From an uncultured virus (IMG/VR IMGVR_UViG_3300032038_000017) (taxonomy: Duplodnaviria; Heunggongvirae; Uroviricota; Caudoviricetes): a DNA stretch of 64,000 bases. Each line of letters begins with the position of its first letter. The stretch's first letter is position 1. Positions 481 through 61,153 of the stretch are shown one piece after another. Made by a program: the position numbers and the translations under genes. The stretch lies in IMG/VR virus record IMGVR_UViG_3300032038_000017. One strand, written 5' to 3'. Under the pieces are notes generated by a model. The model had not been told where the DNA came from, ran no database searches, and worked only from the letters and a program-made list of their open reading frames with translations.

Positions 481-680
481 TTACATTCCTCATTATTTGT
501 AATTATAAGTCTTGCAGTTTTATCGGACAAAACTTCAACGTCAAACATCGGTTCTTTTATGACAACGGTACTTTCACAACCGTTACAAATAGTATGCACT
601 TCAAGTTCGTGCATTGCATAACCTTCGTGTCCTTTCGTCTGTAAAAGACTGCAAAGCTGGGAAATGTTTACTTTCATCAA
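462..680 (-). CDS. hypothetical phage protein
   Basis: 72-aa ORF, start overlaps the upstream stop, AGGAGG Shine-Dalgarno on the minus strand. Confidence 0.55.
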   Translation of the reverse strand: MMKVNISQLCSLLQTKGHEGYAMHELEVHTICNGCESTVVIKEPMFDVEVLSDKTARLIITNNEECKCNDVK

Positions 681-1150
681 GGTTCCTCCTTTTTATTCAA
701 AATTTCTATTATTTTTTCAACGTCAGACAGTTCTATCCCTTTTGAACCATTGACACGCACCAAGTTTGGTAAATCTACATACTGGTCGTCAAGAATAGCA
801 TATTTTTCTACATTGTGTTCTTTTATGTAATCATAAATTTCATCACCACGACGACCATACCCGTAGTTTGGCAAAAGACCAAACTCGCCGTCAAAATCTA
901 TACCGTACTTTTTGAAGATTTTATAGGCGTAATTATACATCTTGTATTTTCGTAGTGTTTTCCAACCGTTACGCCAGCTACTTGATAATACATAATCACA
1001 CCCAGTAGTGTCATGAATGTCTTTAAGAAGTTTTACTTTTTCTTCGTCGATGCACTTCCATTCGGCTTCATTATCTGGAACTTTTGCAAAGAATCCGTCA
1101 TGATTAAGAACACCGTCAATGTCCAAAAAGACAATCTTCTTAAAGTTCAT
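677..1150 (-). CDS. HAD-family phosphatase (Swiss-Army-knife RNA-repair-type HAD domain)
   Basis: FLDIDGVLN motif I, LSSSWR, RGDEI and YAILDD; likely start is MNFKK at 1150. Confidence 0.8.
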   Translation of the reverse strand: MNFKKIVFLDIDGVLNHDGFFAKVPDNEAEWKCIDEEKVKLLKDIHDTTGCDYVLSSSWRNGWKTLRKYKMYNYAYKIFKKYGIDFDGEFGLLPNYGYGRRGDEIYDYIKEHNVEKYAILDDQYVDLPNLVRVNGSKGIELSDVEKIIEILNKKEEP

Positions 1151-1151
1151 A

Positions 1152-1676
1152 CTACCATCTAACCTCTTGCATTCCCAAAAGACCACCAAAATCTGAATCA
1201 ACTTTATAATCATCATTTTCACGGGACTGAATGTTTTTCAAAAGTTTTTCAGACGTAAACTTCATTGTATCTGGGTCGATAAAACAACTTACATGATTAT
1301 TCAACCACCAACCCCAGACCAGTTGTGCAAGATTTCCAATTTTTTTACCAAAATCAAACTGGGCAATGTGACTACTCGGTATAAAATCGTCCAAGGTATT
1401 CAGTGCTTTAATCAGCTCGCTCGGCGTGATGTTACCTAAGTCAATGTTCAAATGTCGCAAGTCTGCATTTTCACGCTCGTCCATATAATTCAAACGAATG
1501 TAAAACTTACAAAGATTTAATACATGGTTGGCAGCAACACGTAGGGACATGTCTTGAAAGGAATCCTCAGTGTCTTGACCGTCATAAACTATAACAACTT
1601 CAATTTCGAATGAGAACTCGTCGTTTTTATGTGACGAATGAATAAACTTTTCAAATATTCGCTTTTTTTCATTCAT
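1152..1676 (-). CDS. hypothetical phage protein
   Basis: 174-aa ORF coupled to its neighbours. Confidence 0.6.
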   Translation of the reverse strand: MNEKKRIFEKFIHSSHKNDEFSFEIEVVIVYDGQDTEDSFQDMSLRVAANHVLNLCKFYIRLNYMDERENADLRHLNIDLGNITPSELIKALNTLDDFIPSSHIAQFDFGKKIGNLAQLVWGWWLNNHVSCFIDPDTMKFTSEKLLKNIQSRENDDYKVDSDFGGLLGMQEVRW

Positions 1677-2402: not shown

Positions 2403-2948
2403 TTAATAGACTGCCTTTATACCGTATGAATAACCGTCACGAAGCGGATTATAGCCGAGGGATTCAAAATAATCACAAAGGTAATTCCATTCTATAACAT
2501 TATGGTCGGCGGATTTTATTTCTGCACAACTTAAAGCTGCGTGGCAAAGTTCGTGAATAATCAAGTTATCTGGTATCTCATATTTCGGATTATGAAGAAT
2601 CCAGATGCATTCATTATCTTTACAACAAGTCGCAGTTACATTATCATATTCCTTAGCGTTAAGGATGTCTGCGTATCTGATTTCTCTTGTAATCGGAAAC
2701 CAGGTTTTATCAAAAAGCTTTTCGAGCTCTTTTCCTCTATTTCTAAGTTCGTTATCATACTTAAAAACGCAAGGAACATTATTAACCATAGTGTTAAACT
2801 CTTTTGAAGCTTTATAGTTATTTTCAAGTTCTGTATTATAGCTACTTACAGTATCATTTGCTATGGAACTACACTGTTTGATACAAGATGTAAAAATGAT
2901 AATGTCTGTAATAATAACTACAAAAAGAACTGTAAAAAGCTTTTTCAT
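2403..2948 (-). CDS. membrane-anchored HExxH zinc metallopeptidase-like protein
   Basis: Start MKKLF at 2948 after GAGG; N-terminal hydrophobic segment; LIIHELCH...DH motif. Confidence 0.6.
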   Translation of the reverse strand: MKKLFTVLFVVIITDIIIFTSCIKQCSSIANDTVSSYNTELENNYKASKEFNTMVNNVPCVFKYDNELRNRGKELEKLFDKTWFPITREIRYADILNAKEYDNVTATCCKDNECIWILHNPKYEIPDNLIIHELCHAALSCAEIKSADHNVIEWNYLCDYFESLGYNPLRDGYSYGIKAVY

Positions 2949-2969
2949 CTGTTTCCTCTTGCCTTGAAT

Positions 2970-3000
2970 ATTATAACTCTTGTAAATTTTACCCTGTAAA
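2970..3000 (-). promoter_or_regulatory. class A promoter TTTACAGGGTAAA...GTTATAAT (19-bp spacer)
   Basis: Same motif and spacing at 6993-7023, 7533-7563, 15365-15395 and 15458-15488. Confidence 0.75.
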
Positions 3001-3137
3001 AATTCCATATATAAATTTCGAATTCAAATCTAAATTTAGAAAAAATTCAACCTTAAAAATTCCTACCTACCCCTCATAATATGTATAACCAGAATTTCCA
3101 AAAAATTCACCTTTTTAAAGAAAATTCGTAAAAAATT
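2995..3137. repeat. ~140-bp dispersed direct repeat, copy 1
   Basis: Matches 41009-41150, with identical 30-bp TTCCTACCTACCCCTCATAATATGTATAAC and 27-bp AAAAAATTCACCTTTTTAAAGAAAATT blocks. Confidence 0.9.
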
Positions 3138-5265: not shown

Positions 5266-5424
5266 ATAATTCGAGATAAAATTTGTAAGTTTTTAACCTT
5301 TTTAAAATGTTTCTACTAAATATGTTAGATTACTGATAATGAAGTCGTCTCTCTTTATTTTTCAGTATTGAATACGGAATTAATAAAAACACATAAAATA
5401 TAAACTTTATAAGGGGATTAGTGA

Positions 5425-5751: not shown

Positions 5752-5954
5752 TGTTTGGATGATTGGTGGGACATCATGCGACTGACATATAAAATGTCAT
5801 CTGGCACGACCCTTCCTTTACTTACGTTTCCAAACTTTCTCTTCATTTCTTTTCCGCATTTCTCACAAATCGGACTTAGTGGTTTCGTCCCCGCTTCAAA
5901 GTTCACTTCTTTAGTCTCATTACAGTCTTTGCAAATAAAAATTGCTTTGCTCAT
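5748..5954 (-). CDS. FmdB-like zinc-ribbon protein
   Basis: FICKDC...CEKCGKEMKRKF pattern. Confidence 0.7.
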   Translation of the reverse strand: MSKAIFICKDCNETKEVNFEAGTKPLSPICEKCGKEMKRKFGNVSKGRVVPDDILYVSRMMSHQSSKH

Positions 5955-5956
5955 TT

Positions 5957-6508
5957 TTATCGTTCCTTCAAAATGTTCGTAAGCCCAGTTTCTAATGGCT
6001 TATTCTTTTCTATGTAACCTTTAAGAACCAAATCCATGTTTCCATAGACTTTTTCCAAAGTTTCCTTAGTAATTATATTATCAAAGGTAAAAAGATTTTT
6101 ATGAACCTCATTATAAGGCAACTGTTCAAGTTTATCCTTATGAATAGAGAACTTGTTCTTGTAGAGTTCACCCATAAAATCGTTCCATTCAAATACATAC
6201 ATTCTCTGGTCGCCACGAGCAACATTTACACCGAGGATAACATAGGAAATAATACCATTGCATTTATTGTATGTATTAAGATAATAATTTTGATGTGGCT
6301 CTATCTTCTGAAAATTAAAAGCCGACATAGCCTTCAAGTATTTTGCTTCCCAACAAACAAAATGTAATCCGTCTTCTTTTTCAATAGTTCCAATACCGTC
6401 GAAACAACGCTGACTGGTAGACTGGAACGCTCCACTTGGGTCCGGGATTTTAAAACCATCTTTTAATGAGTTTCTAATAATGGTACAAACTTCTGCTTCG
6501 TTTTTCAA
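5957..6508 (-). CDS. RecU-like Holliday junction resolvase (PD-(D/E)xK)
   Basis: CFDGIG...WEAK...FNFQKIEPHQ; TTG start with GGAGG SD. Confidence 0.7.
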   Translation of the reverse strand: MKNEAEVCTIIRNSLKDGFKIPDPSGAFQSTSQRCFDGIGTIEKEDGLHFVCWEAKYLKAMSAFNFQKIEPHQNYYLNTYNKCNGIISYVILGVNVARGDQRMYVFEWNDFMGELYKNKFSIHKDKLEQLPYNEVHKNLFTFDNIITKETLEKVYGNMDLVLKGYIEKNKPLETGLTNILKER

Positions 6509-6550
6509 AACGAACCTCCTGATAATATTTAGGAGCTACTACCTAAAGCC

Positions 6551-6594
6551 AAAAAAGTCCGCCTATCATTGAGCATCTTGATAAACGGACCTTT
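6551..6594 (-). terminator. intrinsic terminator downstream of ncRNA 6604-6950
   Basis: Minus strand GGUCCGUUUAUCA...UGAUAGGCGGACU then U-run; G-U pairs form on the minus strand. Confidence 0.8.
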
Positions 6595-6603
6595 ATTTGG
6601 TAG

Positions 6604-6950
6604 TAATTAAGAACGCCAAGTCGGTTGTAAACCCGCTATTTTACAAATCTTCTAATTTTCCGAGTACTTTATCTTCCCCGTACTTATCGACGTTTTTTAT
6701 GAAAAAAGGGCGGTAGCGAGGTGCCCGTTTCAAACGTTTTAAACTATCTTAACTTGGCATACACGCAAGTATGGAACAAGCCACGTTTTCCGTCAAGCTC
6801 TTCCTGTACTTCTAGGTTGTCGTACTAGTCTCGAACGATAACGATTTATAAGCCTAGATACTGCAAGTCCAGGTAAAAGACTTACGACCTATAAACTATA
6901 CTGTTACCTCAGTGTTAGGGCTCAGTGATTACGGATTAATATCTTAATCA
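6604..6950 (-). ncRNA. putative ~350-nt structured ncRNA (group-I-intron-like core topology, family unknown)
   Basis: ORF-free; ACTAATTA motif at 6953-6960; 5' UGAUUAAGA pairs with 3' UCUUAAUUA; several internal helices with G-U wobbles on the minus strand; own terminator. Confidence 0.65.
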
Positions 6951-6992
6951 GTTAATTAGTAAGAATGTAAGTTTTTCTATTAAAAATGTGTT

Positions 6993-7023
6993 TTTACAGG
7001 GTAAAAGTTCGCAAGGTTATAAT
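6993..7023 (+). promoter_or_regulatory. class A promoter
   Basis: TTTACA-GGGTAAAAGTTCGCAAGGT-TATAAT. Confidence 0.75.
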
Positions 7024-7046
7024 ATACAGACTAGAAGAGGTAAATT

Positions 7047-7490
7047 ATGGGATTTTTCGGAAACATTTTTAATAAGGAAAAACACTTGGTTACAGACGAA
7101 GACTTTGACAAAAGATACAAAATCGTTGTCATTAAGGGGTTCAACGATACCACCCCCTACATTTGTGAAATCGACGACGATAGATACACAAGTGTTCTGT
7201 TTGATTTCCCTAAGGATTACTCTGCTAAAGATATAAAAGTTTACAAGTTTTCAACTGGCGTAAAGGAACTCTGTGTAAAAGAACTACGTTCTTTGCTCTT
7301 CTACAAGGACTATAAATTTAATAGAGAAGATTTTATTAATTACCTCAAAAAAGCTGGGTGTTCAGATATCGTTATCGACGGTTTTATAGACTGCACTTCA
7401 AGCGACATTAACAAAGATAAAATGCCAAAAACAAATTATCTTAAAGTCTATGACTACGACGGAAAGTTTATTGGCACAAAAAGAAAATAG
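7047..7490 (+). CDS. hypothetical protein
   Basis: 147-aa ORF, GAGG SD, class A promoter. Confidence 0.75.
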   Translation: MGFFGNIFNKEKHLVTDEDFDKRYKIVVIKGFNDTTPYICEIDDDRYTSVLFDFPKDYSAKDIKVYKFSTGVKELCVKELRSLLFYKDYKFNREDFINYLKKAGCSDIVIDGFIDCTSSDINKDKMPKTNYLKVYDYDGKFIGTKRK

Positions 7491-7532
7491 GCTATGTCTG
7501 TAAAAACGGTTGATATTGAAAATTGATAAAAT

Positions 7533-7563
7533 TTTACAGGGTAAATGGCAGATAGGTTATAAT
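7533..7563 (+). promoter_or_regulatory. class A promoter
   Basis: TTTACA-GGGTAAATGGCAGATAGGT-TATAAT. Confidence 0.75.
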
Positions 7564-7591
7564 ACTTAAACTGGAAAGATTGGAGGTAAGT

Positions 7592-7834
7592 ATGATTAAT
7601 TTTGACGAATGGGTTGCAGACGTTTCTTCAAAGTATAGTGTAGGTGTATTTAAGTATAGCCTTGAAAATGTGCAGCTCGGTTGTGTTTCTTTGAAAGAAG
7701 GACTTGAATACGCTAAAAAACTAAAAATACCTTTTATCTGTTATAACACAAGTTCTGATGAAAAAAAGAAAGTTTGTAAAGAACTTAACGACATTGTTGG
7801 TGTAGCTGGAATTTCTGGGACAGAACCATGCTAA
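7592..7834 (+). CDS. hypothetical protein
   Basis: ATG at 7592 after GGAGG; class A promoter. Confidence 0.7.
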   Translation: MINFDEWVADVSSKYSVGVFKYSLENVQLGCVSLKEGLEYAKKLKIPFICYNTSSDEKKKVCKELNDIVGVAGISGTEPC

Positions 7835-8301
7835 ATATTCCTTGCTTGTTCTTCAACGTCGTGCATAACGTTCTTATAAGCTTCGCCCTCACCACAAATT
7901 CTTACATAGTCAGCCATGTACCGAATGTATTTTAGTCTTAAAACAGGGCTGTGTATGTTTGTATTAACTATGTTTGTAAACTCACGAATAAAATCATCAA
8001 CAGTATTATTAGGTCTGTCTTCCCAAGGTAAACTGCGTATGTCTCGTAGTCGGGCTTCCTTTTCGGTTCTATGTCTTTCACTATTATAATGACTATTTAA
8101 TGTTGCTTTTAATTTAGGTGTAGATTTATACCAATCTTGTATAAGTTCTTCATCATGTTCTAAATCACAATCATTCCGTAAATACAAATAATACGCTTGA
8201 GCAGTTTCTTCTGAAAAGCGACTCAAACTATGTTCTGATTCAAAAAGACGGTTTTTGGACTCAAAAAATACTTCTTCAAAAAAGTGAAATGGTTTTACCA
8301 T
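7831..8301 (-). CDS. hypothetical protein (late, possibly virion-internal)
   Basis: 156-aa ORF; ACTAATTATTT directly before ATG; FFEE/FFES/LFES in the N-terminus. Confidence 0.7.
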   Translation of the reverse strand: MVKPFHFFEEVFFESKNRLFESEHSLSRFSEETAQAYYLYLRNDCDLEHDEELIQDWYKSTPKLKATLNSHYNSERHRTEKEARLRDIRSLPWEDRPNNTVDDFIREFTNIVNTNIHSPVLRLKYIRYMADYVRICGEGEAYKNVMHDVEEQARNI

Positions 8302-8349
8302 AAATAATTAGTTGCTACCTAGGTAGCAACACTATTTACTAACATAGCC

Positions 8350-8383
8350 AAAATAAAATAGGCTATACCTTTCAGTATAGCCT
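8350..8383 (-). terminator. intrinsic terminator
   Basis: AGGCTATAC-6 nt-GTATAGCCT with a U-rich tail on the minus strand. Confidence 0.7.
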
Positions 8384-8390
8384 TAATAAA

Positions 8391-9449
8391 CTAAGCAAAC
8401 TCTTTTTGAACGTCCGTTCCGTTATTCCAAACGTTTTCTTTATTTACTGGGAACCAGTCTGGATGTGCGTCTAGGACAGAATCGTGTTCCTCACGGTCTT
8501 CAATTATCTTTTTTATTACGTCCATGTCGAACTCGTATGTTCCACCAATTCCAAACCAATTTCCAAGTATCTCTACTATTTGTGCTGAACTATACCCTTC
8601 TTCTTTAAGCTTCGTAACTACCTCGTCAACAAATGCCAAAGTATCTTTTGGGTCATATTCTTCCTTTCTTGTTCCATCTGGGAAGGTCTGGTCGTGAAGC
8701 TTAATAAATGAGTTTCTTACTCGTTTCAAATCGCCGTCTTTAACAGCCTTAACAAACCTTTGAGCCGTCATTTCACGTAGTATTGCAAGACTACGGATTG
8801 ACTTGAACGATTCTTTTAATGTCTGCTCTCGTAAACACCTTACACCAGCAAACTTTATATACATTCTTTCAACAAGTTCTTTTTCGTCAAAAGTGTTTTC
8901 TTTACCGTAATCAGAAATTTCTTGCTTCATTTTCAAGTAAATCTGGTCACGTGTAAGATTATCTTGATGTGGTTCTGCAATCTGATAATCCGGATGAACT
9001 TCTGAAACAACCGTATCACCCTGTATTTCTTCTGATTCTGTCAAACCTTTAAGTGCTTTAGAATTATTTGCGTCGGCTTTTGTTATGTCTACACCTGCGT
9101 CGGCTGCACCTGCAACTGCGGAAGCTTGTAACACAAATTTTGTTTTGTATTCGTCTGGCTCCTTTTCCTTCATACCTGCGTCAGAAAGTTCCTTTGCACG
9201 CTCTTCGCCAGCTTTTGCAAGGTCTTCCTCGTTTGGTTTTTTTGCTTCCAAATCTTTTTTGATTACGTCTATGTCTGATTTTACTTGTTTGTCAACTTCG
9301 GTTTCTTCTTCCTCTATAAACCTAATGTAATGAAGTTTACCTAAACTGACATTTCCATTCTCAGTTAAAACTACTCTTTGTCCGTTCTCAGTAAATGACA
9401 ATTTTCCTTCTACAATCTTGTCATCTTTATCATATGCAGAAACTATCAT
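8391..9449 (-). CDS. hypothetical acidic protein (possible head/internal protein)
   Basis: 352-aa ORF with several hydrophobic-X-E sites (FIEE, LTES, LREQ, LKES, LREM). Confidence 0.7.
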   Translation of the reverse strand: MIVSAYDKDDKIVEGKLSFTENGQRVVLTENGNVSLGKLHYIRFIEEEETEVDKQVKSDIDVIKKDLEAKKPNEEDLAKAGEERAKELSDAGMKEKEPDEYKTKFVLQASAVAGAADAGVDITKADANNSKALKGLTESEEIQGDTVVSEVHPDYQIAEPHQDNLTRDQIYLKMKQEISDYGKENTFDEKELVERMYIKFAGVRCLREQTLKESFKSIRSLAILREMTAQRFVKAVKDGDLKRVRNSFIKLHDQTFPDGTRKEEYDPKDTLAFVDEVVTKLKEEGYSSAQIVEILGNWFGIGGTYEFDMDVIKKIIEDREEHDSVLDAHPDWFPVNKENVWNNGTDVQKEFA

Positions 9450-9744: not shown

Positions 9745-10800
9745 TTAACTGGCTTTTGCTTCTTCCAAATCTTTAAGACCTGGATTGTCCGTAGGGTTTT
9801 CTATACTCATAAATTTCTTGAGTAAACCTATCTGTTCGCTAGAAAGGCTCTTTGGTAAGTTAACATCGATTCTTACATATAAATCTCCGGCTTCTCCAGC
9901 TTGATTCTTTACGCCACAACCACGCAGTCTTAAAAGCTTACCATTAGGAGTATCTGCCGGAATTGTAATCTTTATAGATTTTTTATAAATTGTATCTATC
10001 CAAATGTCGCTGCCTAACAAAGCTTGTGTAAAAGAAACTGGTAAGACGCAATACAAATCATTGCCTTTTCTTTCAAACTTGGAATGTTTTCCAACGTGCA
10101 ATTTTATAATTAAATCACCAGATTTAGGATTGCTAAAGTCTTCCATTTGAGCTTCGTCGCCCATACCCGGAACTGTTATTACCTTTTCGTCTTGAACTGC
10201 TGGTGGAATTTTTATAGTTATGTTTTTTAATTTTACCGACATCTTTTTGCCAAGACATTCTGGGCAAGGTCTTAACCCACCACCATAGACTGGTTTAAAC
10301 CCCATACCATTACAGGTTTTACAATTTTCTTTACGAGTAAATTGGATTGTTTTGTTTGTTCCAAAAATAGCCTCTTCAAAACTTAGGTCGGCTTCAATAT
10401 TTACGTTTTCACCTTTACTTTCTGTTCTTGAATTGAATCCTTTTCCAAAGCCTTTCTGCCATGTATCATTAAAGTCATACCTTGATGAAGACCATTTTCT
10501 TTTATTAAGAAGGTCTTCAAAAAAGTCTTTCAAATCACTATAGTCTTTGCTACTACTGGTATACCTTGCCCAATCACTGCTTTGACCAGAACTTCCAAAA
10601 GAATCATAGTCAGAGCGTTTACCATTATCTGAAAGGACTTCGTAAGCTTCCGTAGCTTCCTTAAACTTTTCTTCCGCAGACTTATCTCCGGGGTTTTTAT
10701 CTGGGTGATATTTTGCGGCAAGTTTTCTGTATGCTTTTTTTATTTCTTCAGGAGTTGCACTTTTACTTACACCAAGAATGTCATAATAATTTTTTGCCAT
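9745..10800 (-). CDS. dnaJ: DnaJ/Hsp40 co-chaperone (shortened zinc finger)
   Basis: NYYDILGV...[11 protein letters not shown]-domain; only two Cys repeats ([16 protein letters not shown]); DnaJ C-terminal domain; start MAKNYY at 10800 after GGAG. Confidence 0.95.
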
Positions 10801-10851
10801 TTTAAGCTTTATCTCCAATCATAGTAATTAAACCTTTATAGGATATTAAAC

Positions 10852-10884
10852 AAAAAGCCAGACAATCAAACACTGTCTGGCTTT
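10852..10884 (-). terminator. hairpin/terminator after dnaK
   Basis: AAAGCCAGACA-N9-TGTCTGGCTTT. Confidence 0.7.
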
Positions 10885-10897
10885 GATTTCTTAGATT

Positions 10898-12793
10898 TTA
10901 TGACGCTTTCTGTTCGTCGTGAACCTCATACTGAACATCGTCTGCCTGTCCAGAAGTTTTGCAACTTTCACCACCACAGTTATTACACTGCTGGTTTTGT
11001 CCGTAAAGCTGCTCGGCTATCTTGTATGAAGCCTGTTTAAGCGTCTCTGTTTTTGACTTGATTTCGTCAACATTATCGCCTTCCAGTGCTTTCTTCAAAT
11101 CTGAAATCGCATTTTCACAAGCAGATTTATCAGAACTACTTACTTTATCACCCAAATCCTTAATAGATTTTTCTGTCTGATAAATCAAACTGTCGGCTTC
11201 GTTTTTAACGTCCTGCTTTTCACGAAGCTTCTTATCTTCATCTGCGTGAGCTTCTGCGTCTTTAACCATTTTTTCAATTTCTGCTTCAGAAAGACCAGAA
11301 CCAGAAGTAATAGTAATCTTCTGCTCTTTACCAGTTCCCAAGTCTTTTGCAGAAACATTTACAATACCGTTAGCATCGATATCGAATGTAACTTCAATCT
11401 GTGGAACACCACGTGGAGCTGCAGGAATACCGTCAAGATTAAAGTTTCCAAGTGTTCGGTTATCACTTGCCATACTTCGTTCACCTTGGAGTACGTGAAT
11501 TGTTACGGCAGTCTGGCCGTCTGCGTATGTAGAGAATACTTGGCTTTTCTTTGTAGGAATAGTTGTATTCTTGTCGATAATCTTTGTAAATACACCACCG
11601 GCAGTTTCAATACCGAGTGAAAGAGGGGTTACGTCCAAAAGAACAATGTCCTGTTTTACGTCGTTATTCAAGATACCACCCTGAATAGATGCACCAATAG
11701 CAACTGCTTCATCTGGATTTACAGATTTATTTCCCTCTTTCCCAAATACTTCTTTTACCAAGTTCTGAATAGCAGGAACACGTGTTGTACCACCTACCAA
11801 AAGAACGTCATCAATGTCTGACGTAGACAAGCCAGCGTCTTTAAGTGCCTGGAGCATTGGTGCACGGTGACGTTCAATCAAATCATGAATAATTGCCTCA
11901 AACTTGGAACGACTGATTTCCATCTGCAAGTGCTTTGGACCAGTTGAGTCGGCAGTAATAAATGGAAGATTTACACTTGTAGTAGTTGAACTTGAAAGTG
12001 CAATCTTGGCATTTTCGGCAGCTTCCTTAATTCTCTGCAAAGCCATAGAATCTGTTCGAAGGTCTACACCGTTTGTTTTCTTGAATTCATCACAAATGTA
12101 GTCAACAAGTGCATTATCAAAGTCTGTACCACCAAGTTTTGCATCACCAGATGTTGCAAGTACTTCAAATACTCCGTCTGAAACATCGAGGATAGAAACA
12201 TCAAATGTACCAGAACCTGCGTCAACTACTGCAAGTTTCTTGTTAAGGTTTTTCTTATCAAAACCAAATGCGATAGCTGCGGCAGTTGGTTCTGCAACCA
12301 AACGAAGAACGTTCAAACCTGCAATCTTTCCGGCGTTCTTTGTAGCCTGACGCTGTGCGTCATTAAAATACGCAGGAACAGTAATTACTGCGTCTTTAAC
12401 TTCTGTTCCAAGATAATCTTCTGCCGTTTTCTTCATCTTCATAAGAATCTGTGCAGAAATCTCTTCTGGCGAAAGGTCTTTACCGTCTACATTAACTCTT
12501 GCGTCACCGTTACTACCTTCAGTAACTTTATAAGGGACAATGTTTACCCAGTCTTTCATTTCTGAGTATTTATTTCCCATAAAACGTTTGATTGCATAAA
12601 TTGTATTCTTTGCATTAGTAATTGCACCGTTTTTTGCCGCTTTACCTACTGTAATGTTTCCGTCTTTATAAGCAACAAATGAAGGTGTTGTTCTATCACC
12701 AGTATCATTTACAATAACTGTTGGTGTACCATTTTCAATAACAGATACACAACTGTTACCAGTTCCTAAGTCAATTCCGATTACTTTAGACAT
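10898..12793 (-). CDS. dnaK: DnaK/Hsp70 chaperone
   Basis: [51 protein letters not shown]. Confidence 0.98.
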
Positions 12794-12828
12794 ATATTTC
12801 TTTTCTCCTAAACTCTTAATTCAAAAAT

Positions 12829-12860
12829 AAAACCCAGACAAATTTTCATCTGTCTGGGTA
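12829..12860 (-). terminator. hairpin between hsp20 and dnaK
   Basis: ACCCAGACA-N10-TGTCTGGGT followed by Us on the minus strand. Confidence 0.55.
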
Positions 12861-12957
12861 TAAAAATTGTTTATCTTATTTTTTCAAGAGAAACAATAAC
12901 CTCCAGACAAGCAGTGCTAATAAAGCACTGCTCCGAACCTCCAAATAACTTTTATGC

Positions 12958-13617
12958 TTAGTCGTTAAATGTAAGCATCTTAGGTTTTGTTTCTTCTTTT
13001 GCAGGAACAATGATGGTCAAAACACCGTTTTCGAGTGTCTTTGTGAGATTTGCAATGTCATACTGTGAGCTATCACAGATTACTCTCTGATACTCGTATG
13101 GTGTTTCCAAAGTCTGGTGCTGAACAATCTTTCCCCAGTCTTTGAGCTCACGTGCACCACCTTCGTCTTCTGGAATTGTGTAAGTTTCGCCGTCTTCGCA
13201 CTTTACAAGTACATCTTTCCAAGATTTATTTCTTGTAGCGATGATATTGAAATATCCATTTTTGTAGTCCATGTAAACCTGGTCTTTTGAGAATCCAGGA
13301 AGGAATACTTCGATTTTGTAATCGCCCTTAATGTCATTTCCTACATTTGTTTTTGGGTAGTCACTAAGGACATACTCTTTCTTTGCACGAGTAGGGAACA
13401 AGTTTCCGTTATCAGCACAGTGTGTGTTATAACAGACTACTGTTGAACCATCTGGAGACTTGTAAGTCTTTGTGTTAGGGTCGTTCATAAGTTCCTGCAT
13501 ACGTGCATCTGCATCTGCAAGCAATGAATTAAATGAATTGAAAATTGAAAATGGATTAGAATTGAAAAGTGAGTCCATCTCTTCGATGATGGAAGGTAAA
13601 TTGTTGTTGTTACGCAT
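12958..13617 (-). CDS. small heat-shock protein Hsp20 (alpha-crystallin domain)
   Basis: PKTNV...YKIEVFLPGFSKDQV...LENGVLTIIVP; lies upstream of dnaK. Confidence 0.85.
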   Translation of the reverse strand: MRNNNNLPSIIEEMDSLFNSNPFSIFNSFNSLLADADARMQELMNDPNTKTYKSPDGSTVVCYNTHCADNGNLFPTRAKKEYVLSDYPKTNVGNDIKGDYKIEVFLPGFSKDQVYMDYKNGYFNIIATRNKSWKDVLVKCEDGETYTIPEDEGGARELKDWGKIVQHQTLETPYEYQRVICDSSQYDIANLTKTLENGVLTIIVPAKEETKPKMLTFND

Positions 13618-13816: not shown

Positions 13817-15331
13817 TTAACACAAATTTTCTTTTAGAATACTTTCAATACGATTATACAAGCCTTTATTACGGAAATAGTTACTTACATAAGTTCTTGT
13901 TGACAAATGCTTCTTTGAGCAAAAGCTCTTGATAATGTCGTCTTCAAAAATAGAAGTAATTACTTCCTTTGTAAGTTCCTTTTGTGAACCGTCATCATCA
14001 TTCCTACGCATTTCACCAACACGCTCAATGATAGTAAACTTTATTTCGTCCAACATGTTTTTATCGTACTTATAATTTTCAAATAAACTTGGCACGAAAT
14101 TATACATCAATGAGATGTCATTAACAAGGTGCTTATGGTAAAGCAGTGTATTCATCAACTCGTCTTTGTGTACTTTATGGAAGCTTTCGCCAAAATCGTA
14201 AAGTTTTAAGGTGCTCAATTCATTTTCGTGGAATGTATCGGCATATGCAGACTCTGGGATAACAAAGTTGAATCTTGTCTTCAGTGCAAACAAGAATCCA
14301 CGGTCGTGAAATCTATCCTCTGTTTTCCAGACATTTGCTGCATAAAGTAAAGCCAAAAATTGAGAATCGTCCAAGTCTGTAAAAATCCTTACTGGTGCAG
14401 AATAACTAAGCAACTTTTTATCTGTAATGTACAAAAGTCTTTTGTAACCGTCAATAAGTTGATACTTCCCAGATTTAGAATCAACATTTATTGTGATTGG
14501 TTGAGCTTCCAAGTTCTGCAAGTATTCAATTTCACCGATACGATTATTTCGATTAATAACGGCGTTAACTGCATCGTCGAATGTTTTCTTTGCTACAGAC
14601 TCTGGTACGTGAGTTAACACGCTAACCATGTCGTCTTGATAAAACCTTATTTTAGAGGTATGACCATAAAGTTCGACCCTTGGGTCATACTCAACAAAAA
14701 ACCATTCGTCAATACCACTGTATTCTTTATACATTTGATACACTTCCGAAAAGTTAATTGAGGTAGCTGTATTAACGTCCACGTGTGACGGTAAGCCAGT
14801 GAAATGGTCTGAATAGCAATAAGTATAATTCCCAAGAATGTAGTTATCACCAAAGTTTTCTTTAATGTATGATGTTATGTATTCTTTAGCACTCTTTTTA
14901 ATTGCTTTCTTTACAGTATCATTTACATTTCGTAAACTTCTACCAAATCTTTCAGAGGCGTTTCGAATATCAAATGGTAAACTACGGTTTTTATCCACAG
15001 AACTTCGAGCAATGTTTTCCAATGTAAGGTCTGGACAATTCATCTTGCAATCTTCAAAAGCTTTATTAAATTCTGCGTCGTATAAAGACTGGGCAGTTTT
15101 ATTTGCTTCATCAATAAGGAAACGCCCATATTCGTCTTCAATTGTTTTAATGTCTTTAAGGTTCTGCTCTGTTAAAACCGACTGATATGTTAAATCAATC
15201 CTTGATTTTTCATGGAATCCTTTAAGAATGTCCAAAGACGTGAGACTATTTTCTTCTATAATTCGATTTCTTAAATCCGAAAGGCTAATGTCTTTCATTT
15301 CATAATTTGCTTTTACCAGATTACTATACAT
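13817..15331 (-). CDS. ParB/Sulfiredoxin-domain protein
   Basis: QPITIN...YQLIDGYKRL...APVRIF...LLYAAN is a ParB N-terminal-like motif. Confidence 0.7.
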   Translation of the reverse strand: MYSNLVKANYEMKDISLSDLRNRIIEENSLTSLDILKGFHEKSRIDLTYQSVLTEQNLKDIKTIEDEYGRFLIDEANKTAQSLYDAEFNKAFEDCKMNCPDLTLENIARSSVDKNRSLPFDIRNASERFGRSLRNVNDTVKKAIKKSAKEYITSYIKENFGDNYILGNYTYCYSDHFTGLPSHVDVNTATSINFSEVYQMYKEYSGIDEWFFVEYDPRVELYGHTSKIRFYQDDMVSVLTHVPESVAKKTFDDAVNAVINRNNRIGEIEYLQNLEAQPITINVDSKSGKYQLIDGYKRLLYITDKKLLSYSAPVRIFTDLDDSQFLALLYAANVWKTEDRFHDRGFLFALKTRFNFVIPESAYADTFHENELSTLKLYDFGESFHKVHKDELMNTLLYHKHLVNDISLMYNFVPSLFENYKYDKNMLDEIKFTIIERVGEMRRNDDDGSQKELTKEVITSIFEDDIIKSFCSKKHLSTRTYVSNYFRNKGLYNRIESILKENLC

Positions 15332-15509: not shown

Positions 15510-15968
15510 ATGAATAATAAACAGTTTCTTAAAGAGAAAACACCGTGGCCGAAAGACACACAAGAATTGATTTCTTATGTTGAAAAGGTGTCAGAAGAAT
15601 ACAATACAAGCTATAATGACGCAGTTTACGGACCGGCTTTGGCGGCGATTGCTGCTTTTAATTATGCTGCGAGCAAAATGGGTCTTTCTGGATTCCAAGC
15701 TGGCTACTCAGAAATGTTATTTCTAATGAAACAAAAAAACTTGGAGAACGGTTTTAGTGTTATCGACTTTAATGACCTCTTGTACCCTCAAAATCTTTAC
15801 AAATTTAATATTACTCCGGATAAACTTATCCGAGAAAACTTGGAATCTCTGAAAACATCTGCTAGAAAGCTTTTACAGGAAAATAATTATGCTTCCGAAG
15901 AAGTTCGTAATCACTGGCAGAGTATACTTGACATCCCGGACGAAGAAAAGCTAGAGAACGAGGGCTAA
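15510..15968 (+). CDS. hypothetical phage protein
   Basis: 152-aa ORF, GAGG SD. Confidence 0.75.
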   Translation: MNNKQFLKEKTPWPKDTQELISYVEKVSEEYNTSYNDAVYGPALAAIAAFNYAASKMGLSGFQAGYSEMLFLMKQKNLENGFSVIDFNDLLYPQNLYKFNITPDKLIRENLESLKTSARKLLQENNYASEEVRNHWQSILDIPDEEKLENEG

Positions 15969-18702: not shown

Positions 18703-18706
18703 AACA

Positions 18707-18736
18707 AAAGAGGCTAACCAAATAGGTTAGCCTTTA
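18707..18736. terminator. bidirectional terminator between convergent genes
   Basis: AGGCTAACC-AAATA-GGTTAGCCT. Confidence 0.75.
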
Positions 18737-18739
18737 TTA

Positions 18740-19096
18740 TTATGCTTTCGTTTTAAAGAACAAGTCGTCCAAGATTTTATTTAGTTGACTCATTAATTCA
18801 GATTTTGAAATGTCCTCATTATTTGCTAATGTCCTTATTTTAGCAAACGCTGCAAGTTGTTTTGTATGTTTTTCGTGTAACATAAAATAAGCTTTTTCGT
18901 AATTTTCTGATTGAGCTTTATTTAATTCTTCTTCAAGTTCTGAAATCCTTAAATCTTTATCTGGCTCATCTAATAACCACGTATCTTCACATTCATTCCA
19001 CCCCATACGGAATGACTGCTCATCTAGTCCTGGGGTGTTTTTGGAGATTTTTTCAAACTTTGATTTTATCGTTAACTGCTTATTGTCCATGTCCAT
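18740..19096 (-). CDS. hypothetical coiled-coil protein
   Basis: 118-aa ORF; TTAATAT motif just upstream. Confidence 0.65.
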   Translation of the reverse strand: MDMDNKQLTIKSKFEKISKNTPGLDEQSFRMGWNECEDTWLLDEPDKDLRISELEEELNKAQSENYEKAYFMLHEKHTKQLAAFAKIRTLANNEDISKSELMSQLNKILDDLFFKTKA

Positions 19097-22504: not shown

Positions 22505-22527
22505 AAATATTTAGTTAGACTTTTAAT

Positions 22528-24927: not shown

Positions 24928-27900
24928 TTACAAACTACTTGGGTCTACACAAGAACCTTGCTTTACATAAGCCGTGAAGCTAATGTGTTGTGTACTTGTT
25001 CGGTACTCGATTGGTGGGAATACTGCATAAGCAATCAATTGGTGATACTTATTGAACAAACCGAACTCAGTTACTTCCTGAATCTCTGATTCTTTGTCTC
25101 TTGGGTCTGCCAAGTTCTGTGTACTACATACTGTGTATGTAGAATCTATGTAAGAAGAAAGACTCAAGTTGCTTCCGTCCCAAACACTGCTTCCGTAGAA
25201 TGGGTTCTGTGCAGTAATACCGTATTTAATAAACTGCTTTTCTGTCTGGTACTTAGAAGCCGGCTTATCCAATACGAAACTGATTGAACCAGCTTTTTTA
25301 TCAACTGGGTCAGCGTTTGACTGAATTGTACAAATGTCGTCTTTTACGTCTACCAAAATAGTTCTCTTTGGAACTACATACTGGTCTTCTGTAGCTACCT
25401 TAGACATAACCATTTCCTGTGTAGAACGAACATATTCGTTAACAGACAACTTCTGTTCCCAAACGTGGTTCTTATTGAATACACTTGTTACATTAAGAAC
25501 TTGCCAGTAAGGGTTAGATTCTTTACCCTTAATGTAGAACTCGTTCTTAAACCAGTCTTGACAAGTTTCATAAATAGGTGCCTTAGGAATCTGTGCGTCA
25601 GACAATACGTTCTTTAATGGGTCAAGAACGAACTCAACTGCTACACTATCAATAGTTCCGTCGTCATTTTTAATGTAACCCTCTGCTGCCTCTGGTAAAC
25701 CGTCGTTATTATTATCATAAGAAGAGATTACACTTGAATCAGTACTTCTTGTATAGCCTACAAGGTATCCATTTTCATTACAACGGTAAACTGAATATCC
25801 GTTATTATTCTTGTATGAAGTATCAGAATACTGTTCATTGTTAGCAGAATTGAAAATGTTGTTTCCAATAACTACCGGAGGAACCGGATATCCGTCTGGG
25901 TTAAACCATACACGGTCAGGTGTAAACTTTGACTTTTCAGAAATACTGATTTCTGTAAATTCTGAATCTACATTGCAGTTTGCAATTTCAGTTCTAATGG
26001 TAGACTGGGTAAGCCAACGCATGTTAATGTAATGCTTTTCACCATCATTGAAACCTGCAATATCCAACATTTCCGACAAACTAATGTTATTATCTTCACC
26101 AGTCATACCTACTGTTAATGTATCATTTGTAGTTCCAGTATAAAGAATAGAGTCGTCACCTTTATTGATTACAAAGCCCTTAGCGTCCAAAAGATTCTTG
26201 AACGTATTATATACTGGTTTTCTACAGATTACCTTACCATAGAAACCGTTAACGTATACATTGTTACTTAATTCATTGTATGTGTCGTACTTTACAATTT
26301 CAACAGAAAGTTTCTGTGTATCGTTCAACAATACCGAACCGTCACGCATGTTCAAGTAGTAGCCTTTGTTTAATTCACTACTGAATAATGAAGGCTTTGT
26401 ATTATTATACTTTCCAATTACGGTAGAATTATAAATAGTTGTGGCTATGCCCTTCTTTGCAGTATTAGACAACAAAACTTCAAGTGTTTCTTCATTGTAG
26501 CTTACATACAAGCTTGTAAGGTCGTCCAAACAGATATTATCGATATATGTCTTTCTAACCCAACTATCTTCCGTAACCTTTCCTTCTTCAATCTTGTCTA
26601 CTACATAATCACAAACAGTTGTTACGTTTCCTAACATAAAGATAGGGAGCTTAACTGAAACCGTTCCGCCTACATACAACTTAACAGTATTATTTAAGTC
26701 TCCTTGAGCTGACTGCATGTTAAATACAATACCACCATTAACTCCCTCGTCATATCCAACTATGCTTGAATCATAGAGTGAGCTTAATACACTATTGTTT
26801 GAAGCGTCAAGAACGGATATAGAATCAACCTTTGGATTACCGTCCTCGTCTACTCGGCTTATTACCAAGTTTAATGAAGACTTATTAGTATAGTCCTTAT
26901 AAGACTCTTCTGCATTAACAAGATTCATCTTAATGAGTTCGTATGAAGATTGTTTCTGGTAAATTGCATAAGAATCAAAATAGATTGAACTGTTTGAGTT
27001 ACCAGTTACTACTAAGGATTTTACTTTTACACCTTCTTCGAATCTTTCATCAATTTCAAAATCAAGTGTCAAACCAAACTTCAATTCATACTTTTGATTA
27101 TTAACATAGAATGTAACCAAAAGGCTCTGAATGTCAATTTCATTGCTTGGGCTAACGTAGAAAGCTTGTTGCAGAACGTCTGGTTTTACAAACTTCAACA
27201 TCTTTGAGTTTTCATCATATTCAAAGTCGTAAATAGACTTGTTACCTACTGTGAGTTTTGTTGTTCCACCACAAGGAACATATCTATAAGTGTCCTTTCC
27301 GGTTTTTCCATAATATTTGAATGAAATATTTGGATTACCATTTGCGTCTTTGTCAATATCCACAAGTTTATAGCTTTGGTAAGCCCACAAGTTTATACAG
27401 AATGGGGTTGTTCCAAGCTTAAAGTCACTTATTGGTGTATATACACTTACTCCCCCACTGCCCAGCTTCATAACCTTTTTCTTGTAGGTATTATTTGCAT
27501 TTGAGTATACATACAAATCTTTAGAATCCTTTGTTCCCAAGAAGCTTGCATTTATACTGAATGTATCGCCTACTTTTTTCTCTTGCTCTGCGTCATAAGA
27601 CTTCAAAACCTTACCACTAGCATCAACCATGTATACTGGTTCATCAAGTGAGTTAGTCAGGTATTCACCTAATGTGAATGCGTCTGGGTCTACCAACCAA
27701 GGAACAGTATTTTCCCAGAAAGTTGTATTGCTTCTTGAACCACCATATCCGAAGTTTGACAAATAAACGCCAGTGATTGGATTTGGAAGACTATAATCTG
27801 TTCCAGAAATGTCGTCAAAGCCCATGTTCTTGTAAGCAGTAATACCAGCTTTGAAGCAGTATGGAACCAAAGCCAATGCACTAAGATATCTCTTTTTCTT

Positions 27901-55198: not shown

Positions 55199-55238
55199 AT
55201 GTATATTTAGGAAAAGTAACTAAAACTGAAACTGTATA

Positions 55239-59156: not shown

Positions 59157-59171
59157 ATAAACCTCCCCAGT

Positions 59172-60552: not shown

Positions 60553-60605
60553 ATGCTTTCCCCTTATTTAAAAACAATTTAACAATCTGTTCATTTAAAA
60601 ACAAC

Positions 60606-60634: not shown

Positions 60635-60638
60635 AATT

Positions 60639-61145: not shown

Positions 61146-61153
61146 AATTTATA

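Follow-up and report, generated by a model that had tools for sequence, protein, structure and literature searches.

What is encoded in the 538-nt gap (6509-7046) that parts a RecU-like nuclease gene from a divergent open reading frame in the genome of an uncultured giant phage of ruminant guts? The source contig is novel and jumbo-phage-like, its lineage had no cultured relative in the phage collection searched, and by 'the window' we mean the whole 64,000-nt stretch of it that was analysed. An earlier note, made from the sequence alone, had proposed for the minus strand of this gap a stand-alone RNA of ~350 nt (6604-6950) with a group-I-ribozyme-like core and no exons. All sequences quoted there were located at the given minus-strand positions. 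The observation was confirmed in part and its interpretation supported in part: the gap holds a minus-strand non-coding RNA gene, while most of the proposed group I mapping did not survive comparison with a related locus. Taken as a whole, the explanation we favour is an independent gene for a stable, compact giant-phage non-coding RNA that lies outside Rfam and acts in trans, a view in which our confidence and our doubts are about evenly balanced. The features of the locus are as follows.

5957..6508, minus strand: RecU-like PD-(D/E)XK nuclease gene with a TTG start and an AGGAGG ribosome-binding site; the downstream neighbour, outside the RNA.
6525..6552, minus strand: promoter-like TTGGCT-N15-TAAATAT, after the terminator and before the nuclease gene's ribosome-binding site.
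6545..6602, minus strand: 3′ tail and intrinsic terminator (A-tract, hairpin 6557-6591, U-tract 6551-6556), probably the primary transcript end.
6603..6940, minus strand: core of the non-coding RNA, with its 5′ end near 6940; conserved with the related locus L001 and covered by stand-alone RNA-library contigs.
6941..6985, minus strand: presumed promoter region of the RNA, holding CTAATTAA (6959-6952), which overlaps the 'late-type motif' of the earlier note.
6997..7026, plus strand: promoter of the divergent gene 7047-7490, CAGGGTAAA-N9-GGTTATAATATA, at the far end of the same intergenic region.

All six reading frames are closed within the RNA. No gene is broken by it and no frame continues across it, in line with the earlier note, which stated that no interrupted gene flanks it. 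Each frame carries at least two kinds of stop, and coding under a changed stop codon was rejected on that ground. The alignment of the window with L001 has 349 columns, 77 with substitutions and 8 with gaps, and identity is 77% (264 of 341 bases). It revealed no 3-nt periodicity, substitutions being spread over the codon phases as 22/30/25 (p = 0.53). The small ORFs of the region are not common to L001, which together with the missing periodicity led us to reject a small conserved peptide. At third codon positions of three neighbouring genes, identity between the same two sequences is 43%, 57% and 43%. Among the differences listed for a variant found in the RNA library X17, at least 7 fall in 6603-6940 vs at least about 20 in 6410-6543. 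We conclude that the RNA is non-coding and under purifying selection. Having its own terminator, being conserved beyond the neutral rate and being present as RNA, it shows what is generally expected of a stand-alone non-coding RNA gene. A tRNA or tmRNA was rejected, as the window has no tRNA genes anywhere. An antisense regulator was rejected as well, the best match to the RNA elsewhere in the window being only 14 nt long (E 0.07), and a covariance model found no second copy of the RNA in the window.

Presence of the locus as RNA was judged from sequencing runs. The stretch occurs in 20 runs from 12 studies, and six of these runs, from 4 studies, are RNA libraries; they contain 0.36-0.43 of its words, vs 0.69-0.85 for DNA runs. 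The RNA libraries in which the RNA has contigs of its own come from cattle and sheep gut. A contig of 338 nt in X18 equals 6603-6940, and one of 317 nt in X15 and X16 equals 6624-6940; the results of the latter two runs do not differ, and they probably represent a single data set. Both contigs come close to the bounds that had been proposed for the RNA. Their depths are 59.2 and 33.7, vs 2.8-5.9 for contigs of flanking genes, depth being a poor measure of expression in runs that were selected for containing this stretch. Contigs show presence only, and no splice-like joints were seen in them.

The two contigs, assembled from two studies, both end at 6940 with no loose end. This is a weak hint that the RNA starts there; the shared end could instead reflect a branch of the assembly graph at the point where strains diverge. 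On the 3′ side, the stretch 6527-6583, where the terminator lies, has no cover in X18, and in X15/X16 the high-depth contig stops at 6624, a separate low-depth contig (6209-6597) running from the nuclease gene through the terminator. We considered two explanations for this loss of cover, a processed end near 6603 and poor capture of a hairpin at the 3′ end. The run X17 is uninformative on the ends of the RNA because the whole region sits there within one 8-kb contig.

The terminator itself, already pointed out in the earlier note, is real. Hairpin and U-tract together fold at -22.0 kcal/mol (z -5.28), a value equalled by 0 of 200 shuffles, and L001 has a different stem sequence in the same hairpin and U-tract shape (-24.2 kcal/mol, z -6.33). 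A simple terminator scan missed it because its loop is longer than 8 nt. At the opposite end, the neighbouring gene is read divergently from a promoter of its own, whose motif CAGGGTAAA-N9-GGTTATAATATA recurs upstream of 13817-15331(-) and 15510-15968(+), so the RNA needs a transcription start of its own. We infer a promoter within 6941..6985. The 'late-type motif' ACTAATTA (6953-6960) suggested earlier is not the strongly recurring promoter of the window; it does have a counterpart in L001, where an exact CTAAATAT stands at the corresponding place, 15 nt ahead of where the RNA alignment begins, amid surroundings that otherwise do not align. Pairing of the two ends (6942-6950 with 6604-6612) has no L001 counterpart and reaches outside the RNA contigs. 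An inverted repeat (6601-6610/6952-6961), tried as a closing stem, was rejected since it too is unconserved in L001 and outside the contigs. The exact ends given here for the RNA are putative.

Synteny between the window and L001 ends precisely at the 5′ edge of the RNA: the upstream flank is wholly different in L001 and the RNA is kept. In L001 the gene preceding the RNA points the same way and stops ~40 nt short of it; at that locus, then, the RNA could be a 3′ untranslated region. Such an untranslated tail, or a conserved DNA element (an origin, a packaging site or a regulatory site), would account for the conservation and would make the RNA contigs by-products, and the 8-kb contig of X17 as well as a single-sequence folding energy at chance on both strands agree with this. 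We nevertheless regard it as very unlikely. The window has no co-directional gene upstream of the RNA. Direct repeats or iterons were not found at the locus, which led us to reject an origin of replication. The terminator is conserved in shape, short contigs of just this stretch occur in two RNA studies, and the fold signal described below is strand-specific and uses G-U pairs, which are irrelevant to DNA.

The neighbourhood of the nuclease gene raises another possibility. Its product matches Pfam RecU (1.9e-06) and the PHROG family of Holliday junction resolvases (3.4e-07), and its closest relatives, at 80-84% identity, come from other sources. The order RNA, terminator, ribosome-binding site and gene is identical in the window and L001, the terminator lies only ~40 nt upstream of the nuclease start codon, and the low-depth contig of X15 spans the gene through the terminator. 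Moreover, the conserved 5′ sequence UCCGU(AAUCA) can in both sequences pair alternatively with the 3′ strand of the terminator, a pairing chosen by RNAalifold when the terminator is included. The RNA might accordingly be a cis-acting 5′ leader of the nuclease gene, of attenuator or riboswitch-like type, with the terminator 6551-6591 as its decision point and the abundant short RNA as the terminated leader. We consider this unlikely, including its account of the short RNA. Past the terminator and ahead of the ribosome-binding site, the TTGGCT and TAAATAT blocks are conserved in L001, and the X17 variant has them without a change. Their spacer and the stretch that follows do vary and contain insertions. 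The two blocks may act as a promoter for the gene. At ~340 nt the RNA far exceeds known leaders. No known riboswitch, T-box or attenuator family was recognised, the best Rfam cis-regulatory model being Thr_leader at 15 bits (E 5.6). There is no adjacent terminator/anti-terminator pair, the only alternative partner of the terminator's 3′ strand being the 5′ end ~340 nt upstream. Finally, five relatives of the nuclease gene at ~50% identity lack such a leader: in four (L002, L003, L004 and L006) the gene is not preceded by any long non-coding stretch, and the 494-nt upstream gap of L005 is dissimilar to the RNA. An obligate pairing of the RNA with the RecU-like gene was rejected for the same reason.

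We return to the independent RNA gene and to the question of what it folds into. The comparison set consisted of two diverged sequences, the window and L001, plus near-identical variants. The elements of the predicted fold, which was curated using both diverged sequences and is provisional because only these two could be compared, are listed below.

6833..6923, minus strand: 5′ domain, with helix A (6923-6920/6836-6833) and helix B (6917-6914/6842-6839) enclosing hairpin C (6913-6910/6903-6900) and a long arm D-E-F (6896-6878/6870-6844).
6741..6831, minus strand: central arm, with the P7-like helix AGACUA (6831-6826)/UAGUUU (6746-6741), extended by 6825-6823/6759-6757 and 6820-6818/6763-6761 and then by the terminal hairpin H (6804-6791/6785-6773).
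6700..6732, minus strand: hairpin I, with UGAAA/UUUCA and GGGC/GCCC and a conserved 11-nt loop ACCUCGCUACC.
6659..6667, minus strand: bridging strand GUACUCGGA, predicted to pair with AGUAC (6810-6806) and with the 5′ UCCG (6935-6932).
6625..6646, minus strand: hairpin UUGUAA/UUACAA with the loop AAUAGCGGGU.

The consensus energy computed by RNAalifold was -63.65, vs -38.55 ± 4.46 in 200 column shuffles, none of which was as low. The consensus contained 8 compensatory pairs against a null of 4.4 ± 1.8, with 7 of 200 shuffles having as many; the reverse complement reached -40.9 with 2 compensations only. In the curated model all 170 of 170 cells are paired, with 9 compensatory pairs and 12 one-sided compatible changes, vs 0-1 compensatory pairs in slid controls. 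G-U occurs at 18 of its pairs in one sequence or both, which assigns the fold to the minus strand. Tests that start from a single sequence showed no clear excess over controls. Folding energy was at chance for the core (z = +0.43 on the minus strand, +0.20 on the plus strand) and z was -1.88 with the terminator included. In a less biased test, a fold was derived from each sequence alone and applied to the other; of the changed pairs, 17 of 36 and 18 of 42 were still paired, vs 9-15 of 34-40 and 12-19 of 40-46 in slid controls. For the central region two near-equal consensus folds were obtained (-63.65 and -61.9). Taken together, the alignment shows that a strand-specific fold is predicted in common for the window and L001.

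Helix B is UAAC/GUUA in the window and CGUU/AACG in L001, compensated at 4 of 4 pairs; a helix with 4 compensations arose in 0 of 300 column shuffles. Hairpin C has one compensatory pair, and helix F has 3 wobble-compatible changes in L001 and 2 more in the X17 variant. The central arm is compensated at 6820/6761 (A-U to U-A) and in hairpin H (G-U to C-G). The P7-like helix at its base gives no covariation because it is invariant in both sequences. For the bridging strand, a G-to-U change at 6667 in L001 is compensated by C-to-A at 6806, and a C-to-U change at 6662 retains a G-U pair with 6932, evidence that comes from two sequences only. The pairing of this strand with AGUAC would cross the central arm and form a candidate pseudoknot. 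A second candidate long-range contact joins two loops: CUCGCUA (6720-6714) in the loop of hairpin I is complementary over 7 pairs to UAGCGGG (6638-6632), making AAUAGCGGGU a possible kissing partner. Since all 7 pairs are invariant, the contact is proposed from complementarity.

Measured against this alignment, the nine pairings drawn earlier inside the RNA fared unequally. Three are supported: GUUUAUAGG/CUUAUAAAU retains 8 of 9 pairs in L001, GUAAGUCU/GGACUUGC retains 8 of 8 with 3 wobble-compatible changes, and GGGC/GCCC shows one compensation, from G-C to A-U. Two, UUGUAA/UUACAA and the P7-like AGACUA/UAGUUU, never vary and hence carry no information. The remaining four are broken in L001, where GCUUG/CAAGU loses 2 of 5 pairs, CAUAC/GUAUG 1 of 5 and the local AGUAC/GUACU hairpin 4 of 5, and where the P3-like UCCGU/ACGGA loses 2 of 5 pairs although its 5′ strand is invariant. 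The better-behaved partner of UCCG is the one at 6662-6659 in the bridging strand.

The loss of P3 bears directly on the claim of a group I core. In group I introns a P4-P5 arm and then P6 lie between P3 and P7. The feature that prompted the comparison is real: GUUCGAGACUA (6836-6826) and AAGAUAGUUU (6750-6741) are similar to GGUUCAaAGACUA ... AAGAUAUAGUCu of the Rfam group I consensus and to T4 introns, stand in the correct order ~75 nt apart and are invariant in L001. Their 6-bp AGACUA/UAGUUU helix with GUUC and AAGA flanks is reminiscent of the R and S elements. After the P7-like 3′ strand comes a hairpin, as P9 does in group I, a crossing long-range pairing with one compensatory change makes a pseudoknot possible, and the gene next to the RNA encodes a PD-(D/E)XK nuclease. 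For gut jumbo phages, group I introns have been described as numerous, as have free-standing homing endonuclease genes of PD-(D/E)XK type (PMC12880540). The RNA could thus be pictured as a domesticated, exon-less group I fragment, in which the P7-like helix with its J6/7- and J8/7-like flanks forms an active site with an altered, G-U guanosine pocket on a new scaffold, and which would work during infection as a free-standing catalyst, processing itself or cutting another RNA as its candidate activity.

Most observations speak against this picture. The Rfam group I model RF00028 (Intron_gpI) did not match the RNA at the gathering score or at E ≤ 10 in searches of 751 nt and 348 nt, nor did it match L001, and all other Rfam families were silent at E ≤ 10 in the 348-nt search, whereas the T4 td and nrdB introns used as positive controls scored 40.3 and 35.7 bits. 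The two helices of a P3-P7 pseudoknot are not both maintained, the P7-like one being kept with 6 of 6 pairs invariant and P3 being broken; alternative P3 candidates are either 4 bp and invariant or contradicted. For the segment after the P7-like strand no 5′ partner survives, as GUCGUA/UACGAC acquires a C-U mismatch and is incompatible with helix F. In the 5′ domain, which covariation supports, a single stem (A, B) branches into C and D-E-F; it is not P4-P5 followed by a separate P6 before the P7-like strand. The pair equivalent to the guanosine-site G-C is G-U (6830 with 6742) in both sequences, as the earlier note had said. Exons and splice joints were not found; the RNA is bounded by a divergent promoter and a terminator, with no frame running across it, and its upstream context differs between genomes. 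P- and Q-like strings AAUAGCGGG and CUCGCUAC, tried as a displaced P4, were rejected because both their order and their side of the P7-like helix are wrong. Because the local R/S likeness is real, 'group-I-derived' stays a minority reading and not a family assignment; we find such a descent, and with it any self-processing or trans-cutting activity, quite improbable.

The other part of the earlier claim, a new stand-alone class of non-coding RNA without exons, holds up as a conserved, terminator-ended non-coding unit with its own RNA-library contigs and without an Rfam family. Rfam 15 gave no family match on the minus strand at E ≤ 10, ROOL and GOLLD included. In the phage collection nothing was found by blastn with the intergenic region, megablast with 25 kb or tblastn with the nuclease. 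Single-protein searches of IMG/VR with both flanking proteins returned no homologue, and four of five pattern scans of IMG/VR with conserved blocks gave zero hits. The fifth gave a single locus, L019, which we take as a chance match because it is coding-like and matches neither the RNA model nor Rfam. BLAST and a covariance model applied to two related jumbo-phage records and one metagenome-assembled genome reached 11.7 bits at best (E 1.06), the covariance model run over the window and six loci recovered only its two training sequences, and BLAST over 401 genomes of the order of G003 revealed no members. The family is either narrow or beyond the reach of the collections searched. In the literature searched we found no description of this RNA.

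Under the favoured explanation, transcription would start on the minus strand from a phage promoter that precedes 6940 by a few bases and end at the intrinsic terminator 6551-6591, giving a transcript of ~390 nt with a conserved body of ~340 nt (6940-6603). Its fold would consist of a 5′ domain with branches, a long arm in the centre and a pair of hairpins on the 3′ side, tied together over long distances by UCCG and AGUAC, which share one bridging strand, and by the two mutually complementary conserved hairpin loops. The RNA would act in trans through its folded shape, most likely by binding a phage or host protein or by assembling with copies of itself during infection; a role as intron or as nuclease-gene leader, or antisense action, appears less likely. 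We infer the promoter, the exact ends, the tertiary contacts and this role, and the trans-acting mode is argued by elimination and by analogy with ROOL and GOLLD. By the same analogy, the two complementary loops may link copies into an RNA-only assembly.

It is rare to find a large intricate RNA to which no function is assigned, and phages are the source of several known cases, ROOL and GOLLD among them. To these the locus adds a candidate with unusually direct metagenomic support: a terminator, selection, a strand-specific fold and RNA contigs of its own. If the likeness to group I strands reflects descent, an intron core would have found new use away from introns; if copies are joined through the complementary loops, this would be another self-assembling natural RNA. 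The size of the RNA suits in vitro transcription, chemical probing and cryo-EM, which makes the question directly testable.

Three known systems invite comparison. The lariat-capping ribozyme GIR1 is reportedly group-I-like, non-splicing and located upstream of a homing-endonuclease mRNA; it resides inside a twin-ribozyme intron of eukaryotic rDNA, and Rfam includes a GIR1 model. The RNA described here similarly would be a stand-alone group-I-like RNA directly upstream of a nuclease gene, but a strong terminator and a promoter-like element part it from that gene, and it matches no Rfam family at E ≤ 10. In the packaging RNA (pRNA) of phi29, which is ~170 nt long, two complementary loops drive ring formation between copies. 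Both RNAs are phage-encoded and structured with complementary loops (over 7 nt here), which is an analogy only: size and fold are unrelated and the present RNA does not lie beside packaging genes. The third comparison is with ROOL and GOLLD, large 'ornate' RNAs of phages and prophages for which Rfam has families. ROOL is reported to be highly abundant, was first found in cow rumen and was studied as a 659-nt RNA, many GOLLDs exceed 800 nt, and both self-assemble via kissing loops (PMC12286853). Unlike them, our RNA measures ~340-390 nt, shows no sequence or structure match to either at E ≤ 10, does not lie beside tRNA genes and is so far confined to a single narrow phage lineage. Like them, it is phage-encoded, several hundred nucleotides long and multi-branched, with predicted long-range pairings and no known protein partner or function, and, as a ruminant-gut phage RNA, it carries two conserved hairpin loops that are complementary to each other over 7 nt.

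The window appears to belong to an uncultured jumbo phage. Its GC content is 31–40%, and it encodes DnaK, DnaJ, Hsp20-like, baseplate-J-like, AAA ATPase, SAM synthetase-like and flagellin proteins as well as a 4442-aa ORF; most of the remaining ORFs are without a family match. The phage collection held no DNA-level match to it, and protein-level matches were only remote (e.g. Lak megaphages, 28% identity over 19% of a baseplate protein). This phage-like contig carries a DnaJ–DnaK–Hsp20-like cluster (9745–13617, minus) and a full-length flagellin gene (57818–58669, minus); the 4442-aa ORF (24928–38256, minus) has no Pfam match, and 677–1222 (minus) encodes an RNA-repair HAD domain, 'Swiss Army Knife' in type.

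The RNA, a minus-strand element with its core at 6603–6940, sits in a 538-nt gap (6509–7046) that is among the largest in the window, 92% of which is coding. About 6545–6985 of the gap is left for the element. Features of the locus, and all copies of an octamer found beside it, are:

5957–6508, minus: RecU-like PD-(D/E)XK nuclease gene, TTG start behind AGGAGG; next after the gap on the minus strand
6997–7026, plus: promoter-like motif CAGGGTAAA-N9-GGTTATAATATA, ahead of the 147-aa ORF
7047 (start), plus: 147-aa ORF, other side of the gap
5316–5323, plus: octamer CTAAATAT
6525–6532, minus: octamer CTAAATAT
7831–7838, plus: octamer CTAAATAT
22507–22514, minus: octamer CTAAATAT
55203–55210, minus: octamer CTAAATAT

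The motif CAGGGTAAA-N9-10-GGTTATAATATA is strongly conserved, resembles a phage promoter and stands ~20–40 nt upstream of three start codons, its other copies preceding 13817–15331 (minus) and 15510–15968 (plus). The octamer occurs at the chance rate (5 copies vs 4.6 expected), yet four of the five are intergenic; three precede a start codon by 2–17 nt and are oriented toward it, two near enough to suggest leaderless mRNAs. In L001, the sole diverged homologous locus of the RNA, the identical octamer immediately precedes the RNA. Other long ORF-poor stretches of the window (60553–61153, 601 nt; 59157–59547, 391 nt; 18703–19034, 332 nt) matched neither an Rfam family at gathering score nor R1, the covariance model of the RNA.

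Each frame of the RNA stretch, on either strand, is closed by two or more different stop codons, and reassigning any one of these would therefore not open it. Substitutions between the window and L001 show no three-base periodicity (22/30/25 by codon phase, p = 0.53), and such small ORFs as occur are not shared by the two; together, these results rule out a coding function. An antisense regulator and an origin of replication were also rejected, the window containing no antisense target and no origin-type repeats being present.

The nuclease has 60 database relatives, and a profile built from an alignment of 42 nucleases (41 of these relatives and that of the window) retrieved seven loci, six encoding nuclease relatives and the seventh, L007, being a short marginal match. 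The RNA element was found only in L001, whose nuclease is 81% identical to the window's; there is no second copy in the window, and no members were found in related phage records or 401 sampled genomes. Four of five relatives at ~50% nuclease identity lack a long non-coding stretch upstream of the nuclease, and the fifth, L005, has a 494-nt gap there that is unlike the RNA. Between L001 and the window the element is 79% identical over 388 aligned columns (blastn), and 264 of 341 aligned core bases are identical (MAFFT alignment). This is well above the identity at third codon positions of three flanking genes (43%, 57% and 43%), and the rate of change in the RNA stretch is thus far below that of silent sites. 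Synteny holds downstream of the RNA and breaks exactly at its 5′ edge, beyond which lie ~1.9 kb in the window (about 6941–8826) vs ~140 nt in L001. The window-specific segment comprises ORFs 7047–7490 (plus), 7580–7834 (plus) and 7831–8301 (minus) and the C-terminal 145 codons of ORF 8391–9449.

Within the nuclease gene, L001 (at its positions 2501–3061) and a variant contig from the RNA-library run X17 share an identical in-frame 6-nt insertion, TAG CCG (KIP, stop-P, DPSG), at window 6440–6445 (minus strand), codons 22–23. The window's gene is without it and has an uninterrupted frame under table 11. N-truncated calls of 123–126 aa make up ten of the 60 database relatives, and two more are of 100 aa. 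Retention of the TAG across diverged lineages could reflect read-through or TAG recoding in relatives.

The clearest single feature of the RNA is its terminator, which the earlier note had correctly recognized: hairpin (6557–6591) and U-tract (6551–6556) reach –22.0 kcal/mol (z –5.3), and L001 reaches –24.2 kcal/mol (z –6.3) with a structure of equal shape whose stem sequence is quite different. The terminator is followed by TTGGCT-N15-TAAATAT, which L001 conserves and a third variant carries without change, while its spacer, like the segment leading up to the ribosome-binding site, varies and has gained insertions. This element is probably the nuclease gene's own promoter, which would make the RNA a separate unit. 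That the RNA is a leader of the nuclease gene, which follows it on the same strand, is the reading we rank second and consider unlikely. A 10-nt inverted repeat (6537–6546/6596–6605, 90% complementary), partly kept in L001, brackets the terminator hairpin and could extend it or mask the promoter-like element behind.

The stretch around the RNA is present in 20 public runs from 12 studies, labelled as bovine, sheep or unspecified gut plus one bioreactor series. Six of these, from four studies, are RNA libraries, in which 0.36–0.43 of the sampled words of a 701-nt query were found, vs 0.69–0.85 in DNA runs. Four of the six RNA runs (X15–X18, one per study), themselves chosen by means of this stretch, were compared with window 5900–7600. 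A 338-nt contig from sheep run X18 corresponds to 6603–6940, and a 317-nt contig in both X15 and X16 to 6624–6940; X15 and X16 gave the same results and are probably a double deposit of a single data set. The 338-nt and 317-nt contigs alike end at 6940 with no loose end, a weak hint, since a strain branch could also stop a contig there. Their depth is 59.2 and 33.7 vs 2.8–5.9 for flanking-gene contigs in the same runs, depth being a poor measure of expression. In X17 the whole region lies in one 8-kb contig of a variant strain, the differences listed from the window numbering at least 7 in 6603–6940 and at least about 20 in 6410–6543.

Folding bears on a further reading, improbable in our view, that the conservation is non-RNA or a by-product. 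Single-sequence folds are no better than dinucleotide shuffles (z = +0.43 minus, +0.20 plus, –1.88 with the terminator), so helices seen by eye are not in themselves above chance; folds predicted from one sequence and scored in the other kept 17/36 and 18/42 changed pairs vs 9–19 of 34–46 in slid controls, no clear excess. A different picture comes from folding the two sequences jointly: the RNAalifold consensus of window and L001 has –63.65 kcal/mol and 89 pairs. None of 200 column shuffles was as low (mean –38.55 ± 4.46), and the reverse complement stayed at the null level (–40.9). Eight pairs are compensatory, a number reached by 7 of 200 shuffles (mean 4.4 ± 1.8). The strongest single item is helix B (6917–6914/6842–6839): the window's UAAC/GUUA is replaced by CGUU/AACG in L001, both members of each of the four pairs being different. 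None of 300 column shuffles produced a four-compensation helix. A curated 85-pair model, chosen with the help of both sequences, pairs 170/170 cells, with 9 compensatory pairs (0–1 in slid controls); another 12 changes are one-sided but compatible. Paired columns contain 30 substitutions, none of which disrupts pairing, and the remaining 47 fall in unpaired columns. Among the differences listed for the X17 core, two fall in helix F, in the long arm of the 5′ domain, both Watson–Crick to wobble, and the other five in unpaired columns. For the central region, two alternative consensus folds differ little in energy, and the fold is provisional, being based on two sequences.

Of the helices drawn in the earlier note, GUUUAUAGG/CUUAUAAAU, GUAAGUCU/GGACUUGC and GGGC/GCCC are supported by the comparison with L001. 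UUGUAA/UUACAA and the P7-like helix (AGACUA, 6831–6826/UAGUUU, 6746–6741) are present and invariant, hence without covariation support. L001 contradicts GCUUG/CAAGU, CAUAC/GUAUG, the local AGUAC/GUACU hairpin and the P3-like UCCGU/ACGGA; the pairing of the 5′ and 3′ ends and the AT-rich inverted repeat flanking the RNA are not conserved there. For two of the contradicted pairings there are better-behaved alternatives, GUACU (6667–6663) with AGUAC at 6810–6806 (one C-G to A-U compensation) and CGGA (6662–6659) with the 5′ UCCG (a C-to-U change keeps G-U), so that one 9-nt strand bridges two distant segments. In the model the former crosses the central arm as a candidate pseudoknot. The loops of hairpin I (6700–6732; CUCGCUA) and the UUGUAA hairpin (6625–6646; UAGCGGG), both invariant, are complementary over 7 nt and may form a loop–loop contact.

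A group-I-derived ribozyme, for which the earlier note saw a core, is as improbable as the non-RNA or by-product reading. The local motif likeness is genuine. Set beside the Rfam group I consensus (...GGUUCAaAGACUA... and ...UgAAGAUAUAGUCu...) and two T4 introns, td and nrdB, the RNA shows counterparts GUUCGAGACUA and AAGAUAGUUU in the same order, ~75 nt apart, forming a 6-bp helix as in group I, except that the guanosine-site G-C is G-U in both window and L001. The drawing was mostly wrong in detail, however, and the other features tested fail: the RNA has no supported P3, its 5′ domain has a single stem that forks into two hairpins where group I has P4–P5 then P6, and no exons surround it, the upstream flank not even being conserved in L001. 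Searches down to 348 nt gave no RF00028 or other minus-strand match at E ≤ 10 (T4 controls: td 40.3 bits, nrdB 35.7 bits), a negative limited by RF00028 not scoring P7 as pairs; two related jumbo-phage records gave no RF00028 match above 11 bits. According to PMC12880540, gut jumbo phages commonly carry group I introns as well as free-standing endonuclease genes of PD-(D/E)XK type, so a distant group I derivation stays a reasonable possibility.

The earlier observation is confirmed in part, and the locus is firmer than the sequence by itself could reveal: it holds a genuine non-coding RNA gene, under selection and ended by a terminator, that is found as a separate contig in gut RNA libraries. 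The group I core was not borne out as drawn. We rank as most likely, at about an even chance, a folded RNA that belongs to a new family, stands alone and acts in trans. Neither the window nor the L001 sequence of the RNA matched an Rfam family, and no tRNA or tmRNA was found. Its closest known counterparts in kind are ROOL and GOLLD, large RNAs encoded by phages and of unknown function, from which the RNA differs in being smaller, unrelated in sequence and without adjoining tRNA genes. In PMC12286853, both are described as phage- or prophage-encoded and as forming RNA-only cages, partly via kissing loops, and ROOL as first found in cow rumen, with high abundance reported.
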